In this document: positions 12,282-20,750 of the stretch, piece after piece
How the letters are laid out: each line of letters starts with the position of its first letter
Position numbering within the stretch: the first letter of the stretch is position 1
Source of the DNA: Candidatus Woesearchaeota archaeon
GTDB taxonomy: Archaea; Nanobdellota; Nanobdellia; Woesearchaeales; SM23-78
DNA length: 29,423 nt
Direction: 5' to 3'
NCBI GenBank assembly: GCA_965603625.1
Contig: CBFDDS010000001.1
Location: 1 to 29,423 of the forward strand
Made by a program: the position numbers and the translations under genes
Notes under the pieces: model-generated
Databases searched by the model: none
The model's input: only the letters and a program-made list of their open reading frames with translations
What the model was told of the DNA's origin: nothing

Positions 12282-13082
12282 ATGCCAGAAGACCCATTTT
12301 TACTCGTATCTCTCGAAGAATCAGAATCAAAAGAGCTGGCAAAGGTTATTAGCAATAAGACCAGCAGGAAGATACTTGACCTCCTTAGCAAGAAGGACGC
12401 TACAGAGACACAGATTGCAAAGGATTTAAAACTGCCTCTATCAACAGTGCATTACAATCTTCAGCATCTCCTCAAAGCTAATCTGGTAAAGGTTGATGAA
12501 TTCCACTATTCTGAAAAAGGCAAAGAGGTTAACCACTACTCTCTGGCCAATAAATTGATTATTATTGCGCCTAAGAAAACTTCAAGAGAGTCCTTTATGC
12601 AGAAACTAAAGGGCTTGCTACCAGTGGGTATAATAGCATTAGCAACAGCAGCTGTTATCAAGGCAATAACCCTTTTCAAGTTTGGTGCTTCAAAGACCCT
12701 GGCAGCAGCCCCTGCAGTCACAAGAGAGGTTTTTAGGACTACAAAAGAAATCGGAGAAGAAGCAGCTGTTGCAGGAGGAGAGGCAGTAGTAGGTGGGGAG
12801 GCAGGTGCAGAAATAGCAAGGCAGGCTGTACCAGAAGCAGCAGATGCCTTTGTGGCTAATGTTTCTAATGTATCCCAGAAGGTTACACAAAACATGACCC
12901 AAAATTTAACTCCAACAACTGAAATAAGTGAACGGGTTGTTGAGACAATCAGAGAAACCGTGTATGTTCCTCAGCCGTCAGAGCCCAGCATTGCTGTATG
13001 GTTCCTGCTAGGAGCAGTCTTTGTGATACTCCTGCTTGTTATTTGGTACTGGTTTGTTACAAGGAAGAAGAAGCATAAATAA
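12282..13082 (+). CDS. Membrane-anchored ArsR-like winged-helix transcription regulator (two predicted TM helices)
   Basis: N-terminal wHTH (LAKVISNKTSRKILDLL...ETQIAKDLKLPLSTVHYNLQHLLKANLV). Hydrophobic segments LLPVGIIALATAAVIKAI and IAVWFLLGAVFVILLLVIWYWFV; basic tail RKKKHK. Confidence 0.8.
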   Translation: MPEDPFLLVSLEESESKELAKVISNKTSRKILDLLSKKDATETQIAKDLKLPLSTVHYNLQHLLKANLVKVDEFHYSEKGKEVNHYSLANKLIIIAPKKTSRESFMQKLKGLLPVGIIALATAAVIKAITLFKFGASKTLAAAPAVTREVFRTTKEIGEEAAVAGGEAVVGGEAGAEIARQAVPEAADAFVANVSNVSQKVTQNMTQNLTPTTEISERVVETIRETVYVPQPSEPSIAVWFLLGAVFVILLLVIWYWFVTRKKKHK

Positions 13083-13096
13083 TTCCCATATTAGGT

Positions 13097-13948
13097 CTAT
13101 GTCCTCAGAGTGGCATAGAAAGTCTCGAATATGGGCCTATTTGTTGTGATGCTTATAAAGTCATGCCCCAGGTGCTCGCAGACTGATTTTATTGCGTGGA
13201 TGTGGTGCTCCATCTTATCTGTGTAGTTCCTTATTAATCTGTTGCTTATGAAGGTTCTTAGCTTTGTATGGAGCTCGCTGTCCTCAAGAACAACATCCCC
13301 ATATAATGAGAGCCTTCTCTCCTCTGGGTCAAGCACCTGCACCACTATGACTTCATGCTTTGTAAATCTTGTGAGAACGGTTTTTATTTCCTCAATATCG
13401 TACAGAAAGTCTGATATTATTACTACAAAACTCTTGGACCTTAAGTATTTTTTGTACTCATCAAAGGATTTCCTGAATTCTGACTTGCCTTTAATCTTGA
13501 GTTTCTCCAATATATCAACAATGCTCAGCAGCTGGTTCATCCCTTTTCTTGCCCTTAGATAATTGAGTTTCTCAGAAAAGGTTGAGAAATTAAACTTTTC
13601 ATTATCCCTTAAGGCCATGTAGGCAAATCCCATGCCTATCATGCTCGCATAGTCAAACTTTTTTATCTTTCTTCCAAAATCCATGCTTGCGCTTGCATCC
13701 ACGATTATGTGCACAATCATGTTTCTCTCTTCTTCAAACTGCTTTACAAAGAACTTGTTGGTGCGCGCATAGACTCTCCAGTCGATTGTTCTGAAGTCGT
13801 CACCTGGAACATAGTCTTTGTAGTCAGCAAAAACCAAGCCCTGCCCCTCTGCATGGCTCTCTCTTTCTCCCTGGTATCTTGAGAGCACTCTCTTCTTTAG
13901 AACAATGTTGAAGCGGTCAAGTTCCTTTAGGAAGGATATATCTATCAT
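13097..13948 (-). CDS. DUF58 (COG1721) vWA-like MoxR partner
   Basis: FADYKDYVPGDDFRTIDWRVYAR, VDASASM (MIDAS DxSxS), VIISDF. Directly downstream of MoxR. Confidence 0.9.
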   Translation of the reverse strand: MIDISFLKELDRFNIVLKKRVLSRYQGERESHAEGQGLVFADYKDYVPGDDFRTIDWRVYARTNKFFVKQFEEERNMIVHIIVDASASMDFGRKIKKFDYASMIGMGFAYMALRDNEKFNFSTFSEKLNYLRARKGMNQLLSIVDILEKLKIKGKSEFRKSFDEYKKYLRSKSFVVIISDFLYDIEEIKTVLTRFTKHEVIVVQVLDPEERRLSLYGDVVLEDSELHTKLRTFISNRLIRNYTDKMEHHIHAIKSVCEHLGHDFISITTNRPIFETFYATLRT

Positions 13949-13973
13949 CTTGCTCTATGTCTACTTATATATG

Positions 13974-14930
13974 TTATTTCATTATCTCCCTTATCACATC
14001 ATCAGGGGTTTTTCCCTCTCTCTCAGCCTTGAAGTTGAGTATAATCCTGTGTCTTAGCACTGGATAAGCCATCTTTTCAATATCCTTGGCACTCACGTAC
14101 TTCCTTCCATTGACAAGGGCTTTTGCCTTTGCAGCCAGGATAAGACCGATGCTTGCTCTTGGGCTTGCCCCATACTCTATAAGGTCTTTCTCAGTCCTTG
14201 TCTTGGTAACAACCTCAAGAGCCCTCTTCTTAATATCATCTGCTATTGGCACCTGCCTTGTAAGGTTTTGCAGCAGTTTCAATGAATCCTTGCTCAGGAG
14301 GGTTCTGATCTTTACAGTCGCTTTTTCCGTGGTGAACCTGTTTATTATTTCCATTTCATCATCAAAGGTGGGGTAATCAACAAGTACCTTTAGCAGGAAT
14401 CTGTCAACCTGTGCCTCTGGTAAGGGGTAGGTTCCTTCCATGTCAATAGGGTTCTGGGTTGCCAGTACAAAGAAGGGCGTGTCTAATTTCATGGTTTGGT
14501 TGCCCACAGTCACCTGCTGCTCCTGCATTGCCTCTAAAAGAGCGGACTGTGTTTTCGGGGTTGCCCTGTTAATCTCGTCTGCAAGGATTACATTCGCAAA
14601 CACAGGCCCTTTCTGGAATCTGAAACTCTTCTTGCCCTTTTCCTCTTCAATAACATAGGTTCCTATGATATCGCTGGGCATTAGGTCAGGAGTGCTCTGG
14701 ATACGGCTGAACTTGAGGTCAAGCACCTCTGCTATGGTCTTTACCAAGGTTGTTTTTCCAAGCCCAGGATAGCTCTCCAGCAGCGCGTTTGCATCGCACA
14801 GGATGGCAATCAGGATTTGTTCAACCACATCCTCCTGCCCTACAATAATCTTGCTTATCTCCTTTGCAACATTACTAAAGGTGTCTTTTAGCTTCTCAAT
14901 ATTACGAACGCTCTCAATGCTTTTTGTCAT
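13974..14930 (-). CDS. moxR: MoxR-family AAA+ ATPase
   Basis: Walker A ESYPGLGKTT, TPDLMPSDI, Walker B LADEINR, ATQNP, YPLPEAQVDRF, YGASPRA. Confidence 0.95.
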   Translation of the reverse strand: MTKSIESVRNIEKLKDTFSNVAKEISKIIVGQEDVVEQILIAILCDANALLESYPGLGKTTLVKTIAEVLDLKFSRIQSTPDLMPSDIIGTYVIEEEKGKKSFRFQKGPVFANVILADEINRATPKTQSALLEAMQEQQVTVGNQTMKLDTPFFVLATQNPIDMEGTYPLPEAQVDRFLLKVLVDYPTFDDEMEIINRFTTEKATVKIRTLLSKDSLKLLQNLTRQVPIADDIKKRALEVVTKTRTEKDLIEYGASPRASIGLILAAKAKALVNGRKYVSAKDIEKMAYPVLRHRIILNFKAEREGKTPDDVIREIMK

Positions 14931-14979
14931 TTTTAATCCTCCAAATCTTTTATTTTATTATTTTTCCTTAAAATTTGTC

Positions 14980-15774
14980 TTAAATATTTTTTATTCTCTG
15001 ACTATAATTTGCTGCCTGTTCTGCTTCTTCAAGAACTTCCTGGTTACTAAAGCTGTCTGGATTCACACCAATCTCCTGTGGAAGCCCTCCTTCTCTCAGG
15101 CTTTCTCTCTCTGTCTCGCTTATCTTGTTGAAGTCTATCTCGCTCATGCTTGGGTTCATGTTGAGATCTATCTCCTCATTGCCCAGCTTCGCAATGCTTG
15201 CATCTCCGTAAATTGCCTCTGTTTCATTGAATACAATGTCTATTAGACTTCCCTCTTCATGAACTCCGTCACCTGTGCTTGGTATCATGAATTTGAGTTT
15301 TTCAAAAGGGATGTCAATCTTTTGTATGTTGATGTTGAGAGAGGACACAAAGATTATGAGGAAGACAACAGCCACGGCGCTTATTATCCTGGTGATTATT
15401 TTTTTTGATTCCAGGAGATTTCCAGTGGAAACAGTTTTCATCTTTTTCTTTAGCTCACTAAACAGGGCGACTGTCATGATGTTTTCTTCGTCCATGTTGT
15501 CATGGGCTGTTCTGAGCATCTCCTTGACCTGAGGATTGGCATCCTCCATTAGTTTCAGCTTTAATCTCTTTATTCTAATAATCGTGCTCACAAAGAAGAA
15601 AACCATTGTTATAAGCGCAGGTATTGATATGATGAAAAGAAACTTGATGTTAAAGAAAGACACAATGATGTATGTGATAAAGAAGACCATGATTGCGTTT
15701 AGAAAGGTGTTGATGAGAACTACTTTTAGCAGTTCAATTTTCACTTCATTAAACAAACCCTTTATTTTTGGCAT
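14980..15774 (-). CDS. Hypothetical membrane protein (about three TM segments, acidic C-terminal region) of the MoxR operon
   Basis: Hydrophobic stretches near aa 17-66 and 127-146, acidic tail, co-oriented within the operon with short gaps. Confidence 0.75.
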   Translation of the reverse strand: MPKIKGLFNEVKIELLKVVLINTFLNAIMVFFITYIIVSFFNIKFLFIISIPALITMVFFFVSTIIRIKRLKLKLMEDANPQVKEMLRTAHDNMDEENIMTVALFSELKKKMKTVSTGNLLESKKIITRIISAVAVVFLIIFVSSLNINIQKIDIPFEKLKFMIPSTGDGVHEEGSLIDIVFNETEAIYGDASIAKLGNEEIDLNMNPSMSEIDFNKISETERESLREGGLPQEIGVNPDSFSNQEVLEEAEQAANYSQRIKNI

Positions 15775-15809
15775 TTTCTATGTTTCCAGGTCATAATATA
15801 AGGATATAG

Positions 15810-16325
15810 TTATATGCAATCGTATTCGTCTCCATCATCCGTGGATAACAGGCACGCAATCTCGTCCTTTCGGTCATCAATCTGGCTGTTCAGGCTGTTG
15901 ATTTGCTTGTTCTTACTCTCTATTGTTTTGTTAAGATTAATCATCCGTGTATAAGCTGCATCTACCTGTTTTTTATAGACCTCTTTTTGCAGAGTGGTCC
16001 TTGTGAGGTCTGCTTTAACATCACCCAGCTCATCTGCTTTCTCCTTGAGCTCCCCTGCTTTTTGCTCGTACAGGAGATCATACTTCCTTATGTCTGTCTC
16101 TGTGCTGTTCAGATTCCTCAGGGTTGTCAGCAAGGAGGTTGTTGTATGGCTTAGATTCTGCTCACAAATTCCCAGGTTGGTGCTTAAGGTGTTGTATTTA
16201 TTATTTACATCCTTAAACGTGTACTGATAGTAAACAGTCGCTCCTCCGAATCCCAACAGGACTAGTAGCAGCATTAGCAATAAGAATAGGTTCACCTTTT
16301 TACCCATGAATCCTGAAGTCGCCAT
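15810..16325 (-). CDS. Single-anchor coiled-coil protein
   Basis: N-terminal TM (LFLLLMLLLVLLGFGGATVYY) followed by a long heptad-like helical region; three Cys; SD GAGGTTGA upstream. Confidence 0.75.
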   Translation of the reverse strand: MATSGFMGKKVNLFLLLMLLLVLLGFGGATVYYQYTFKDVNNKYNTLSTNLGICEQNLSHTTTSLLTTLRNLNSTETDIRKYDLLYEQKAGELKEKADELGDVKADLTRTTLQKEVYKKQVDAAYTRMINLNKTIESKNKQINSLNSQIDDRKDEIACLLSTDDGDEYDCI

Positions 16326-16348
16326 TTTTAATCAACCTCTTGACTTTT

Positions 16349-18784
16349 TTACCGATTAAGCCTCTTCTCTCTTACTTTTCGAATACCAATCTCTATTAAA
16401 AAGATTATCACTGCCAGTAAGATGAATGGCCAGATAATAGTTGTCCTTTCAATCTTGCTTTTCTTTGAAGCACTCTTTACAAAATCAACAATATCCTTAG
16501 TCTCTGAAGATTTAAAAATCTTTCCTCCGCTCATACTCACAACTTCCTCTAGTCTTGGGTTCATGCCAAGGGACTGGTACTCTGTCTCATAGTTTACAGC
16601 GTAACTTTTTCCAAGCACCTGGCTAAACCCGAGTTCCTCGGCTATTATTGTTGATTTGTACTGGTTCTCTCCAACCCGGGTAAAGCCCAGGCCCTCAGCA
16701 CTAGGATATTTATCACTCTTTACAATAACATCAATTGGTGTGTTTATCCTTGAGTCAGGTATCACAACATAATAGGGTTCTTTTCTCTGAGGGTCTCCTA
16801 TGACCCAGTTGGTAATCCTAGTGAGCAGGATGGAGTTCCTCTTGTTAAGCAGGTCCCCAAGATTATTGTTGCCACTGAAGACATTAAGAGTGGCCACTCT
16901 GCCGAGCCCATAGTTCCACACAGTAACTGCTGGCTCTCCATGCTGGGTTGTGACAAGGAGCTGGGCGCTGCTCTTGGGTATTACCTGGTTGAATCCGTAG
17001 AGAGAGGCATCCAGCAATAGGTCTTGTGTAATGAAATGGTAGGGATTAATAACAAAGAGGTCAAATAGTTCGCCAAACTTGGTTTCTTCTGGGTCTCCAA
17101 ACAGTATCTTAAGCCGGTTCTCTTGGTCTGCTGGGAAGTAGATACCCCCTCCGTTATAAGCTATATCTTTTAAGAAATCCTCAGCAACATTCCTTCCTGT
17201 GCCCACAACATAAACCTTGACCCCTCTTGCATTAATGGTCTTTGCAGTGTCGAGAGTCTGTTTTCTTATGCTATCACTGCCTGTATTGCCATCTGTGATT
17301 AGGATTATATTATTTGTGCCTACATGGTCTTTTAGGATTGAGTAGGCACCTCCAAGCCCTATATGGAAGAAGGACTGGCCTGCTGGCTGCTGAACTCTTG
17401 CTATTTTATCAATGAGCTGCTCCTTTACTAAGAAGAGCGGTTGGAGGGACTCAACAATAAAGCTTTGGGTGTGAAATCCAGTAACACCAACACTGTTGTC
17501 AGGGCCCAGGCTCTTGATAATGCTTACAGCAAGGGCTTTTTCTATGTCCTGGATATCAGACTTCACCTTTCTTAGTTCAGTAATCCTGCCTGTCTTTGGG
17601 TCTCTTACGACTTCATATCTGTCTCCACTGCTGCCTGAGAAGTCAATGGCCATTGCAATGTTGCTTGAGCCTCTTTTTCGTGCAGCCTTGCCGACATATA
17701 CAGGGAGATATGATTCCAGCAGGGAGTTCTTATAGTCCCCTCTGTCAAAGCTGTCAAAGCCGCCTATAACAAATAAGCCGTTTCCATAGTAGCCCCCCTC
17801 CTTATCGATAAGATAGTTAGCAAGCCTTTCAACTCCTCTGATGTTGGCGGGCTTGTCATAGAGGATAACAGCGTAGTAGTCATTAACATTCTCTGGTATG
17901 TGATTAAGCTCAGTAACATCATAAAGATTCTTGATTATCTTTTCAATAGGGGCATAGCTGTCGCTTACAAGCAGAATCTTTGGTTTTTTCACAACACTCA
18001 CGCTCTTGTAGAAAATATTGTTATTTTCAAAATAATCCTGGGGCGCACTTACCTCTGCTATTATCCTATGGTTGCCCTCCTTGAACTCCTTTTCAAAGAC
18101 ATATCTATCCTTCTTTGTAACCTCATTGATGATAACCTCGTCATCAACTGTGACTTTTAGCCTTGCCTCTTGACCGCCAATATTTATTATGTTTACACTA
18201 AAGGTATTATTCACACCCACAACAGTGCTCTCAGGACCAGAGATATACAGCCCGGCCTCTTTTTCCTTTTCCTCCAGCTCAATAGCGCTTATAGTGCTGT
18301 TAAGATTTGCTGCCAGCAGGGCAACATCTCCAAGTTCTGTGCCCTTGTTAACATTTCCATCAGTTATTAACAACAGGTTGGTGTCTTTTTCTAAATAACC
18401 GAGAATGCTGTCTGCTAAGTCAGACTCCATGCCAGAGCTGAGAGTCTTAATGCTTACAGGGACTTCTCTCTCGAGCTCCTGCTTTAGTATGTTCATAAAT
18501 CCAGTATCCATAATTTTCATGGAGGTGGTGTTGTCAGCCAGAATGATTAGCTTTGGGTCTCCATAAGTGGTTGTCTTTACCTCGCCAAAAGGCTTTGCAA
18601 GCACGATGACCAGGAGTATGAAAATTAGAATTCTTGTTATCAGGATTGTTCTCCTAAATCTCTTTTTCTCTTTTTTATCACTGAAATCAAACTGGATAAA
18701 GTCTCTGAAAAGAAGGATTATAAAGACTATCAGGATGGGGATTAATACCAAGAGCACCTTTGGGTCTAGTATGTTATCTATCAC
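16349..18784 (-). CDS. Large membrane protein: BatA-like N-terminal TMs, degenerate vWA, Ig/CARDB-like domain, GATase1-like domain with inserted vWA, C-terminal TM
   Basis: ITRILIFILLVIVLAKP; LADNTTSM; DYFENNN; LFVIGGFDSF...LESYLPV; AIDFSGSS...LITDG; WNYGLGRV; WPFILLAVIIFLIEIGIRK. GTG start with GAGGTGA SD. Confidence 0.8.
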   Translation of the reverse strand: MIDNILDPKVLLVLIPILIVFIILLFRDFIQFDFSDKKEKKRFRRTILITRILIFILLVIVLAKPFGEVKTTTYGDPKLIILADNTTSMKIMDTGFMNILKQELEREVPVSIKTLSSGMESDLADSILGYLEKDTNLLLITDGNVNKGTELGDVALLAANLNSTISAIELEEKEKEAGLYISGPESTVVGVNNTFSVNIINIGGQEARLKVTVDDEVIINEVTKKDRYVFEKEFKEGNHRIIAEVSAPQDYFENNNIFYKSVSVVKKPKILLVSDSYAPIEKIIKNLYDVTELNHIPENVNDYYAVILYDKPANIRGVERLANYLIDKEGGYYGNGLFVIGGFDSFDRGDYKNSLLESYLPVYVGKAARKRGSSNIAMAIDFSGSSGDRYEVVRDPKTGRITELRKVKSDIQDIEKALAVSIIKSLGPDNSVGVTGFHTQSFIVESLQPLFLVKEQLIDKIARVQQPAGQSFFHIGLGGAYSILKDHVGTNNIILITDGNTGSDSIRKQTLDTAKTINARGVKVYVVGTGRNVAEDFLKDIAYNGGGIYFPADQENRLKILFGDPEETKFGELFDLFVINPYHFITQDLLLDASLYGFNQVIPKSSAQLLVTTQHGEPAVTVWNYGLGRVATLNVFSGNNNLGDLLNKRNSILLTRITNWVIGDPQRKEPYYVVIPDSRINTPIDVIVKSDKYPSAEGLGFTRVGENQYKSTIIAEELGFSQVLGKSYAVNYETEYQSLGMNPRLEEVVSMSGGKIFKSSETKDIVDFVKSASKKSKIERTTIIWPFILLAVIIFLIEIGIRKVREKRLNR

Positions 18785-20650
18785 TTATAGGTCACCTCTC
18801 AGTTTGATGTACAGGAATTCAAGCAATAACAGGACCAGAGCGGCGATTATAATGTAATTTGTGAGCTCAAAGGGAACCTTGTCCTTGAACTTGGAGCTCG
18901 CCTGGTAAATCCCCTGCTCGCTAAGGCTTTCCTCGTTATTGATATCAGACTCTCTTTCACTTAGAAGATTAATAGCGATTACCCTGTCATTCAGGGTGTA
19001 CAATCCTGCATTCTCAAGGCTCAGGGTCTTGGTAGTAATTTTTCCTGTCGGAGCCTGTATTTTTTGCTCTTCTTTGAAATTCATAATGTTTCCTGTGTTA
19101 TAATTCAGGTTTTTTATAGAGGGAGTGTCTGTGGCGAAGTCAACAAGCCTTTTCCAGAATACAAAATAAGCAGGGCTCTTTGCAAAGCTGGTTCCTGCCT
19201 GCTTATCCTCGTCAAGGATACCATAAAAGAACACTTTCCCTTCTTTTAGGGTGCTGAAGGTTATCAAAGGAGTTTTGTCCTCGGCAGCAGCCAGTACCAC
19301 CAGGTTTATCCCTTCGAGGGGGCTTGCCTTGAAGTACTTCTTTGTGATTCCGAACTCAAGGTTTGCTGTGATACCCTCACTGCTGCTGGCAAGGATGTTG
19401 GTGCTTGTAGTAGCTGTGCCATTGACTCTTGAGGGCATAAGGCCGTAATAGTTAATATTCATAAGATCTGCCTGTGCTGCAATTATCACGGTTTTGCCTT
19501 TTTCCTCGACCTCTTTTTTTACACCCTTAAAAGTTCCTGGGAGGATAAGGTTGGGATTAGCATCTTTAAAGATAAAAATCTCATAGGCTTTAAGGTCGGG
19601 TATTTTAGGTGGAATAGCAACATCAATATCAGTGTTCTTCATCACATCAAAGGCATTGAACAGGAAGGTCTTCTTGGGGTCGGCGTTGTTGGTAATCAGG
19701 AGAGCCCTTTTTTTGACGTTTTCTGGTGTACTTACATAGATGGTGTTGTCTGCTTCAAAACCGTCTTTTAGGCTTGTAACCTTAAGCTCAAGCTTGCTTG
19801 TGCCTGCAGGCGTTGAGAAAGTGAATAATTCCTGGGATTCTGAGGGTATGCTCATCTTCTCTTCAAGAGAATTGACCTTGAGCTCTATCTCAACACTATT
19901 AGCATTATAATTCTTTATAACAGCGCTCGTCTTTTTCTCGTCGATGTCCAGGTCAATTATCCCTACATTGTTAGCAGGCTCAAACACTCTTATGAAATCC
20001 ACCTTTATGCCCTGTGCTTCCAGAGTCTTCTTTGCAGTGTCAAGATTGGTGTCTGTTTCTGTGTCAATGAAATCACTAATCACGACAATTCTTGAATCAC
20101 CTCTTGCGTATCCCCCTGCCGTGCTGATAGCATCATAAAGATTAGTTGGGGTGTCTGTCGGGTCTAGCCTGGTAAGATATGTCTTAATCCTGCTGGCAGG
20201 CTTGTCAATAAGCACTACCTCTGGTGTTTTTTTAGCGAGCACAAGGGTGTTTATCGAGCCAAGATTCTTTTTTGCAAGTTTAACAGCCTCTTCAAAGCGG
20301 GTTTTTCCGTCATAATCCGCCTTCATGCTTGCGCTCACATCCAGCACAAGAACAGTGTTCTTGAAGAGAGACTCCTTTGTGACATTGATAAATGGCTTTG
20401 CAACTGAAAACAAGAGGAAGAGCAGGACTAGGAGCTGGAGCAGGAAGAGCAGGTCTTGGATGAGTTTCCTGAAAAAATTGGTCCTTCTATCCCTGCCCAG
20501 ATCCTTGAAGAGGAACATTAGGCTGGGAAGCACCTTATGCTTTGGTTTTGGCTTGATGAGGTAGAGGAGAATAAAAGGGATTAAGAGGAGAAGAGCATAG
20601 AGCCAGATAGGTTCAAGGAAAAAATTGCTGGCACTCTCTAAAAAACCCAC
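18785..20650 (-). CDS. BatA (N-terminal double-TM) + vWA domain protein with C-terminal TM
   Basis: FLEPIWLYALLLLIPFILLYLIKP...PSLMFL, LLFLLQLLVLLFLLFSVAKP, MIDAS VLDVSASM...T...VISDF, C-terminal IAALVLLLLEFLYIKLR. GTG start with GGTGA SD. Confidence 0.85.
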   Translation of the reverse strand: MGFLESASNFFLEPIWLYALLLLIPFILLYLIKPKPKHKVLPSLMFLFKDLGRDRRTNFFRKLIQDLLFLLQLLVLLFLLFSVAKPFINVTKESLFKNTVLVLDVSASMKADYDGKTRFEEAVKLAKKNLGSINTLVLAKKTPEVVLIDKPASRIKTYLTRLDPTDTPTNLYDAISTAGGYARGDSRIVVISDFIDTETDTNLDTAKKTLEAQGIKVDFIRVFEPANNVGIIDLDIDEKKTSAVIKNYNANSVEIELKVNSLEEKMSIPSESQELFTFSTPAGTSKLELKVTSLKDGFEADNTIYVSTPENVKKRALLITNNADPKKTFLFNAFDVMKNTDIDVAIPPKIPDLKAYEIFIFKDANPNLILPGTFKGVKKEVEEKGKTVIIAAQADLMNINYYGLMPSRVNGTATTSTNILASSSEGITANLEFGITKKYFKASPLEGINLVVLAAAEDKTPLITFSTLKEGKVFFYGILDEDKQAGTSFAKSPAYFVFWKRLVDFATDTPSIKNLNYNTGNIMNFKEEQKIQAPTGKITTKTLSLENAGLYTLNDRVIAINLLSERESDINNEESLSEQGIYQASSKFKDKVPFELTNYIIIAALVLLLLEFLYIKLRGDL

Positions 20651-20731
20651 TTACCTCACCACTAAAATGTTATGTTAATCCATCTATTGAAATTAAAGTC
20701 CTATACTTAATAGATTTTAGACATAAGTTTT

Positions 20732-20750
20732 AATATAAATGTTTTTCTAA
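20732..20750 (-). promoter_or_regulatory. BRE/TATA promoter of the vWA-MoxR operon
   Basis: The minus strand reads TTAGAAAAACA-TTTATATT about 80-100 nt upstream of GTG 20650. Confidence 0.45.

Follow-up and report, generated by a model that had tools for sequence, protein, structure and literature searches.

The stretch of DNA analysed here (the window) comprises 29,423 nucleotides (nt) of contig CBFDDS010000001.1 from a Candidatus Woesearchaeota archaeon (assembly GCA_965603625.1; 0.83 megabases (Mb), 173 contigs, 81% complete), and the closest protein homologues are labelled Woesearchaeota or Nanoarchaeota, which identifies the organism as a DPANN archaeon. The system in question is a cluster of six co-oriented open reading frames (ORFs) at 13097-20650 of the minus strand, on which all features of the cluster given below are located. 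The genes are named A to F in the order of transcription: A and B encode large membrane proteins with von Willebrand factor A (vWA) domains, C and D small membrane proteins, E a MoxR AAA+ ATPase and F a DUF58 protein. According to the ORF list the intergenic gaps from A to F are 0, 23, 35, 49 and 25 nt, which is exactly what a preliminary description of this DNA had reported. Its count of four membrane-anchored products agrees with a hydropathy scan as well, in which A, B, C and D display 3, 3, 1 and 3 transmembrane (TM) segments, respectively, and E and F none; lacking a TM segment, F should be cytoplasmic.

The six products and their conserved motifs

Protein A (18785-20650, 621 amino acids (aa)) matches the Pfam families BatA_N (48 bits, cut-off 25.9), VWA_2 (34.2 bits), DUF7407, DUF7408 and DUF7406, as well as TIGR02226 (24.1 bits, cut-off 23.05). 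[quoted passage not shown] Its N-terminal half consists of two TM segments (BatA_N), the vWA domain at about residues 93-225 and the beta-sandwich DUF7407; the C-terminal half contains the GATase1/ThuA-like DUF7408 (312-510) and the beta-sandwich DUF7406, after which a juxtamembrane strand leads into TM3 and a short tail. In an AlphaFold model built on 76 orthologues (mean predicted local distance difference test score (pLDDT) 86), the strand at 589-595 is immediately followed by helix 597-618, which is TM3. The vWA fold matches the BatB structure 3ibs with Z 15.1, and the BatA structure 4jdu was matched too; these alignments span residues 93 to about 590, so that the juxtamembrane strand is included in them.

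Residues 312-510 of A were aligned to structures 2gk3 (Z 20.6) and 3rht (Z 19.4) by Foldseek and VIA-align, and also match the N-terminal domain of IFT52 (Z 13.7), which places this part of the protein in the GATase1/ThuA/GH42-trimerisation fold class. A role of DUF7408 as a catalytic glutamine amidotransferase was considered and rejected: there is no Cys anywhere in A and no invariant His within 312-510, and a Cys-His-Glu triad is thus missing. Without a cysteine, the domain is a non-catalytic look-alike, like the matched ThuA-like and GH42-trimerisation domains.

Three short motifs of A are strongly conserved among the 76 orthologues. The MIDAS motif DVSAS (residues 104-108; 20327-20341) is invariant, with D104, S106, S108 and the more distant D193 present in 76/76 sequences each. 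The Lys/Arg-rich loop between TM1 and TM2, predicted to be cytoplasmic, contains the motif PSLMF (20513-20527), in which F46 is found in 76/76, P42 in 75/76, and S43, L44 and M45 in 72/76 sequences each. The C-terminal tail KLRGDL (18788-18805), likewise predicted to be cytoplasmic, has the consensus KxRGD[LIV]; G619 is invariant (76/76), K616, R618 and D620 occur in 75/76 orthologues each, and the last residue is L, I or V. A short BatA protein encoded elsewhere in the same genome (see below) has no KxRGD tail.

Protein B (16349-18784, 811 aa) matches the Pfam family VWA at residues 418-558, with no match to BatA_N. Alignment of A and B by hhalign (probability 98.9%, E-value 1.5e-17) maps residues 57-416 of A onto 36-370 of B, and from TM2 of A onwards the two proteins are, as judged by this alignment, paralogues, which the preliminary description had not noted. 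B comprises a TM hairpin, a first vWA domain (vWA1), a beta-sandwich, half of a GATase1-like domain, an inserted vWA2, beta-rich domains and a C-terminal TM segment with a basic tail; the insertion, at about 374-560, is a complete second vWA domain. The AlphaFold model of B (mean pLDDT 86, built on 73 orthologues) matches vWA domains and a CARDB-like sandwich, and shows the same strand-then-TM ending as A, with strand 774-782 followed by helix 785-810.

The preliminary description had listed four MIDAS motifs (DVSAS, DNTTS, DFSGS and DASAS), all of which are found in the translations, and had called three of them intact and DNTTS degenerate. This label does not hold, and within B the assignment has to be reversed. 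In vWA1 the motif DNTTS (residues 84-88; 18521-18535) is conserved: D84, S88 and D142-G143 occur in 73/73 orthologues, of which 64 have S and 9 have T at position 86. The motif is thus a DxTxS variant of a conserved site, with no sign of decay. In vWA2 (DFSGS, residues 381-385; 17630-17644), D381, S383 and D498-G499 are present in 73/73 sequences, and it is the third motif position that varies (S in 41, G in 22, T in 7, A in 3). Taken together, this pattern of conservation indicates that the MIDAS sites of A and B, which are predicted to be external, are under selection.

Protein C (15810-16325, 171 aa) starts with a short basic stretch and one TM segment, from which a coiled coil of about 110 aa extends, by prediction outside the cell, to an acidic tip between two cysteines at the C-terminus; Pfam and other family models gave weak coiled-coil matches only. 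An alignment of 40 sequences displays a leucine zipper (L51, L58, L65 and L72; 16110-16175) with a spacing of exactly seven residues, each Leu being conserved in at least 90% of them. The Cys pair, C158 and C170, surrounds an acidic stretch (15816-15854; hydropathy and composition scan), and most orthologues terminate in a Cys pair around a short, often acidic, stretch. In one locus (L114) a 181-aa ORF in the position of C was missed by the hidden Markov model of C, and has a TM segment, a coiled coil and two C-terminal cysteines.

Protein D (14980-15774, 264 aa) is a member of DUF7502 (Pfam E-value 8e-25), a family that comprises 730 clusters at E-value <=1e-3 in a library clustered at 50% identity. 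Some homologues of D carry the label 'DUF106 family' (JGI), which was set aside as Pfam gives DUF7502 only. In D, a TM hairpin is followed by some 60-75 aa of conserved helical sequence, predicted to be cytoplasmic, and TM3 by an acidic C-terminal part of some 115 aa, predicted to be external. The helical segment includes a motif running from E77 to D92 (E..P.L.E.LRTA.D; 15499-15546), in which E77, E85, L87, T89 and D92 are each conserved in at least 90% of 67 sequences.

Protein E (13974-14930, 318 aa) matches AAA_3 (E-value 4e-63, 211.7 bits, cut-off 27) and AAA_lid_2 (79.7 bits). Its alignment with 2R44, a structure of a MoxR protein of the MRP ('MoxR proper') type, covers 301 residues (E-value 3.5e-83) and brings the motifs PGLGKT, ILADE, ATQNP, VDRF and GASPRA into register. 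Walker A (PGLGKT, 14751-14774) and Walker B (ILADE, 14574-14588) are intact, as are the remaining ATPase motifs, namely sensor 1, the arginine finger and sensor 2, in accordance with the intact AAA+ ATPase of the preliminary description. On these motifs E is assigned to the MRP subfamily of AAA+ ATPases, and the genomic pairing typical of this subfamily is found, with the DUF58 gene F located 25 nt downstream of E and vWA domains encoded by A and B.

Protein F (13097-13948, 283 aa) matches DUF58 (E-value 5e-42, 144.1 bits, cut-off 23.4); a comparison with solved structures gave no sequence match. Its MIDAS motif DASAS (residues 84-88; 13685-13699) belongs to a set of positions (D84, S86, S88 and S179-D180) that are conserved in at least 95% of 56 sequences.

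The moxR orthologues of several Woesearchaeota comprise about 830-860 codons, for example at L028:1558-4149 (minus strand) and L055:14614-17115 (plus strand), with similar sizes in L073, L096, L106 and L115. The additional length is caused by an intein (Intein_splicing and LAGLIDADG homing endonuclease) at the end of AAA_3, near sensor 1. The moxR gene of the window has no intein.

Conservation and distribution of the cluster

The public loci considered here are the 80 best from a scan of genome contigs with a degenerate profile of A, and are essentially all from metagenome-assembled genomes (MAGs) of Woesearchaeota type. Where the locus is sufficiently long, the order ABCDEF is found without exception (50/50). 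The remaining loci mostly stop at a contig end; two of them (L053 and L098) continue past the last gene detected. Twelve loci from other families of the order contain all six genes in the same order, with detectable similarity in C and D, and the same gene order is found in two other orders of the class. In addition, DUF7502 and DUF7408 are present in the identical 28 of 41 related genomes, and are located on one contig, about 4 kilobases (kb) apart, wherever the assembly allows. This tally includes an unpublished genome (G002), without which it is 27/40; G002 is in none of the alignments. A to F constitute one conserved unit. That the two small genes C and D travel with the MoxR and vWA genes bears out the co-occurrence on which the preliminary description had made its proposal depend. 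Its statement that related clusters are present in other archaea is supported as well.

Within the phylum, DUF7502 was found in 76 of 201 genomes, in an all-or-none distribution by family (for example, 18/20, 7/7, 0/22 and 0/10 genomes). On this distribution the system is firmly retained where it is present, and many DPANN lineages are without it. This bears out only half of the earlier argument, which took the presence of the cluster in a reduced genome as a sign of an important role. In a set of 14 named controls, the models of DUF7502, DUF7408 and DUF7406 match Haloferax volcanii and Methanosarcina acetivorans only, which refers to presence and not to adjacency of the genes; Bacteroides thetaiotaomicron and the other bacterial controls gave no match. 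Word-indexed searches with D, both as a single sequence and as a profile, and the ESM Atlas did not reach the haloarchaeal and Methanosarcina homologues, and the best 150 matches of a HMMER search of representatives with D are all close relatives. A tblastn search of A against plasmids gave no match.

Upstream of A (20654-20747, read by eye from the sequence), a putative BRE/TATA-like AT-rich stretch is located at about 20731-20747 and a putative Shine-Dalgarno-like GGTGAGG at 20654-20660, directly before the GTG start codon. In several orthologous loci the ORF calls of A and B overlap by 4 nt, an arrangement consistent with translational coupling.

The flanking genes encode enzymes of central carbon metabolism, namely phosphoenolpyruvate (PEP) synthase, pyruvate:ferredoxin oxidoreductase, ROK kinase and class II aldolase. 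The flanks (ROK kinase, class II aldolase and PEP synthase) are common to the closest relatives only, and the genes inserted into some clusters are heterogeneous, for which reasons a conserved seventh gene of the operon was rejected. Such insertions, none of which recurs, include an LPG_synthase_C (MprF C-terminal-like) gene between E and F (L050:15615-16646), an MFS transporter gene between B and C (L037:13232-14482) and a gene for an immunoglobulin (Ig)-like protein between D and E (L077:15589-17358). At 12282-13082 of the window (plus strand), convergent with F, there is a gene for a membrane-tethered winged-helix regulator. The same regulator is found 5-9 kb upstream of A in the more distant relatives L054, L067, L090 and L105; its linkage to the cluster is loose and could be due to chance.

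Many cluster-bearing MAGs (among them L032, L036 and L038) are titled 'uncultured Methanosarcinales archaeon', and one (L068) 'Candidatus Binatia bacterium'. These titles look like binning or naming errors and are no guide to taxonomic range. In another genome, the DUF7502 match (G087:C14:8213-8884) contains two TGA stop codons and one TAA stop codon, and the gene may be broken.

The cluster is one of at least three MoxR-type modules in this genome of about 0.83 Mb, which also has three full DUF58 genes and two weaker matches to the DUF58 model; the two further modules had escaped the preliminary description. Contig C33 (L110:868-3874, minus strand) carries a classical Bat-like module in bacterial gene order, consisting of a MoxR protein of 336 aa, a DUF58 protein of 298 aa and the short BatA of 319 aa, composed of BatA_N, vWA and a C-terminal TM segment; a cohesin-domain protein is encoded next to it and a large Ig-domain protein nearby. 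On contig C10 (L111:5644-7843, plus strand) an AAA_5/ChlI-like ATPase gene overlaps the gene of a 463-aa vWA protein, beside a glycosyltransferase gene, and a further DUF58 gene is located at C139:1107-1739.

A literature search yielded no paper on DUF7502, DUF7406, DUF7407 or DUF7408 and none assigning a function to the archaeal cluster, in line with the preliminary description. An apparent Haloferax 'DUF58' paper (PMC11023807) concerns DUF5821.

Predicted membrane topology and a possible mode of action

The distribution of charges suggests how the membrane proteins are oriented. The loop between TM1 and TM2 contains 10 Lys or Arg residues in A and 8 in B, and in A (residues 33-65) these 10 compare with 2 Asp or Glu residues. 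Both proteins have basic C-terminal tails, no Lys or Arg occurs in the N-terminus of A, and the C-terminal region of D is acidic. From these charges and the positive-inside rule, we infer a location outside the cell for the coiled coil of C, the C-terminal part of D and the large domains of both A and B, and one inside for E, F, the conserved D segment and the loops and tails of A and B. The predicted topology of A and B agrees with that of the BatA-family protein BB0173, for which three TM helices and a periplasmic vWA domain have been mapped experimentally (PMC5700661).

A membrane-bound scaffold with a coiled-coil stalk, as proposed in the preliminary description, is indeed what the products look like. 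The insertion of metal into an envelope substrate, which was proposed along with it, is not supported: with the vWA domains of A and B predicted outside and the ATPase inside, the motor could make no direct contact with a substrate outside the cell. A chaperone that serves an envelope metalloprotein by metal insertion or in a chelatase-like manner would have parallels in NorQ-NorD, CoxD-CoxE and the Mg- and Co-chelatases, which pair MoxR-like ATPases with vWA proteins, and E displays weak matches to BchD and CobS. These matches are far below the curated cut-offs, and no metalloenzyme gene is linked to the cluster in any locus examined; together with the predicted separation of ATPase and vWA domains, this makes such a function very improbable.

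We hypothesize instead that the locus encodes a Bat-like transmembrane MoxR-vWA machine, whose motor engages the membrane subunits from their cytoplasmic side. This reading is assigned a probability of about 0.5. The paralogous three-pass proteins A and B would probably pair in the membrane and display on the outside three MIDAS-bearing vWA domains together with non-catalytic GATase1-like and beta-sandwich domains. C would contribute an external coiled-coil stalk, held together by its zipper and ending in the Cys-flanked acidic tip. On the inside, a hexamer of E would work with F as its cytoplasmic vWA adaptor.

The NorQ-NorD system provides the model for this step: the NorD vWA domain reaches with a finger into the pore of NorQ, and according to the proposed mechanism its MIDAS binds acidic residues on the cytoplasmic surface of the membrane protein NorB, one TM helix of which is remodelled upon ATP hydrolysis (PMC9976466, PMC13036017). 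Likewise, E and F would dock on the conserved cytoplasmic parts of A, B and D, and the MIDAS of F may hold on to an acidic residue exposed there, which would serve as the sixth MIDAS ligand; the best candidates are D620 in the KxRGD tail of A, or E77, E85 and D92 of D. Hydrolysis of ATP would then pull on TM helices. Since TM3 of A and B directly follows, in the models, a strand that is included in the vWA fold alignments, such a pull could alter the external MIDAS sites, either by switching or by assembling them. The likely role of the machine would be assembly, anchoring or remodelling of a partner in the envelope or at the cell surface. Conservation of the PSLMF loop and the KxRGD tail of A at the level of its MIDAS lends support to this reading, as does the conserved acidic motif in the predicted cytoplasmic segment of D.

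The main rival is a one-off role in biogenesis; secretion, metal insertion and aerotolerance are weaker. In the biogenesis reading, the MoxR and DUF58 proteins act once in the folding, membrane insertion or oligomerisation of A to D, the finished external complex is a passive adhesin, spacer or scaffold, and no ATP-driven signal crosses the membrane. The literature portrays MoxR proteins as chaperone-like factors in the maturation of dedicated complexes (PMC3893208), vWA domains found outside the cell, such as those of the CMG2, TRAP and Mfa5 type, serve passively in adhesion, and the coiled coil of C with its Cys-capped tip looks structural. It would leave unexplained, however, why the KxRGD tail and the PSLMF loop are conserved to the same degree as the MIDAS, and why the three-TM protein D is constantly present with its invariant cytoplasmic motif. 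We regard it as a possible explanation with a modest chance of being correct.

Several points weigh against a transmembrane machine as outlined here. All contacts among the six proteins are inferred, by analogy, and charge bias and a single bacterial precedent are the basis of the topology; the predicted ectodomains show no enrichment of N-glycosylation sequons (A 2/507 residues, B 3/718). The third MIDAS serine of vWA2 in B is not conserved (41/73). DUF7502 was not found in 125 of the 201 genomes of the phylum, nearly all of them at least 90% complete, and so the system is dispensable for many relatives. To our knowledge there is no proven precedent for a MoxR motor and adhesion sites on opposite sides of a membrane. 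Finally, bat mutants of Leptospira biflexa reportedly displayed no clear phenotype, and roles of the Bat type may be subtle or conditional.

Comparison with known systems

Of the prokaryotic gene clusters that lack an assigned substrate, MoxR-DUF58-vWA ('Bat-like') operons are some of the most widespread. The copy described here is an ordinary representative of an archaeal Bat/MoxR-vWA variant that is widespread and unnamed, and the new points concern the paralogy of A and B, the architecture of their insertions, the corrected MIDAS assignment in B, the KxRGD tail and the predicted split between inside and outside. The archaeal version is unusually well defined, with six fixed genes and a clear predicted division into cytoplasmic and external parts, and its sharply conserved motifs on the predicted cytoplasmic side, namely the acidic motif of D and, in A, the KxRGD tail and the PSLMF loop, are precise targets for mutation. 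Haloferax volcanii and Methanosarcina acetivorans, in which the models found matches, are genetically tractable, so that the question of function may be tested in archaea, where no outer membrane complicates the study of Bat-like functions. For DPANN archaea, a conserved surface machine with several MIDAS domains would be a candidate for envelope maintenance or cell-cell contact.

The Bat operons of Bacteroides and spirochaetes, which comprise MoxR, DUF58 and BatA to BatE, resemble the locus in their MRP-type MoxR, DUF58 and BatA_N-anchored vWA membrane proteins. The vWA folds of the locus match those of BatA (4jdu) and BatB (3ibs), and BB0173 shares the three TM segments, its vWA domain having been mapped to the outside. 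The gene order is reversed, the vWA genes being first in the archaeal cluster and moxR-DUF58 last. The locus differs further in the additional DUF7502 and TM coiled-coil proteins and in the large insertions of A and B (beta-sandwich and GATase1-like domains, and the second vWA domain in B). It does not constitute a complete Bat operon, since the TPR, SH3 and BatD families have no match in the six products (Pfam, E-value <=0.01).

A role in aerotolerance or redox stress, as first assigned to the Bat operon of Bacteroides fragilis, would be plausible for an anaerobe and would fit the pyruvate:ferredoxin oxidoreductase genes in the window, the BatA_N domain of A, the structural matches to BatA and BatB, and the oxygen response of the bat-like genes of Borrelia (PMC5700661). 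Nevertheless, counterparts of BatC, BatD and BatE are missing, and the family models also match Haloferax volcanii, which is an aerobe; according to PMC3557215, moreover, no specific function of Bat proteins is established in spirochaetes. We consider this role highly unlikely.

The arCOG01314/DUF4350 complex is an archaeal secretion or membrane-remodelling system predicted from genomics (Makarova, Galperin, Koonin 2015, PMC5898192). It resembles the locus in combining MoxR and vWA/DUF58 proteins with proteins anchored in the membrane whose external domain is flavodoxin/GATase1-like (GldG-like). Its DUF4350, Ig-like S-layer-type and 5-TM proteins are not present in the locus, and its description includes neither BatA_N, DUF7406, DUF7407, DUF7408 and DUF7502 nor a coiled-coil protein. 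None of the six products matches DUF4350, a domain which in that complex belongs to a signal-peptide protein with one TM segment at the C-terminus; A is of a related fold class and differs in family and topology.

By analogy with this complex, the six genes might encode an apparatus for secretion or for translocation to the surface, in which the GldG/GIFT-like domain would belong to a machine of the translocating or gliding type. The DUF7408 fold of A, including its similarity to IFT52, belongs to the class cited for arCOG01314 (PMC5898192), and most components are predicted to be membrane-bound or external. On the other hand, a polytopic protein that forms a channel, a secretion ATPase and a conserved cargo gene are all absent from the cluster, the genes inserted in some loci (MFS transporter, LPG_synthase_C, Ig-like) are heterogeneous, and a DUF4350 match is lacking. 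This explanation is improbable in our view.

NorQ-NorD, on which the proposed action of the transmembrane machine is modelled, has in common with the locus a cytoplasmic MoxR ring and a single MIDAS vWA adaptor; NorD is proposed to attach to acidic surface residues of an integral membrane protein, with transmission of force to a TM helix. It differs in the subfamily of NorQ (CGN, not MRP), in having an adaptor from outside the DUF58 family, and in acting on a respiratory enzyme, with insertion of iron as the result.

Integrins offer an analogy only, with no homology beyond the vWA fold. There, too, an external MIDAS is tied to TM helices with short conserved cytoplasmic tails, and the switching of integrin I-domains is attributed to movement of their C-terminal helix. 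In A and B, the last structural element of the vWA domain is positioned such that it might transmit a pull. The RGD of A is predicted to be cytoplasmic and would correspond to a ligand rather than to a receptor site. Carried to its end, the analogy would make the cluster an archaeal 'inside-out' adhesion switch, in which the MoxR and DUF58 proteins seize the KxRGD tail, pull TM3 and toggle the external MIDAS. We hold this specific version to be unlikely. If true, it would amount to ATP-powered transmembrane signalling that controls surface binding, possibly attachment to a host or to the surface layer (S-layer) in DPANN archaea, and would be the first mechanism for Bat-type systems in general.

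For the broader reading, a transmembrane machine acting on the envelope, the genes RL3499-RL3502 of Rhizobium leguminosarum, known as a 'broadly conserved operon', are instructive. They share an MRP-type MoxR with the locus, and differ in being bacterial and functioning in a cell with an outer membrane; we know of no DUF7502 or coiled-coil partner in that system. Transposon sequencing (Tn-seq) identified RL3499 and RL3500 as genes whose disruption impairs growth on TY medium (PMC5118466), and loss of RL3499 itself is reported to affect membrane integrity and cell morphology (cited in PMC3893208). These genes provide the best experimental hint of an envelope role for the archaeal cluster.

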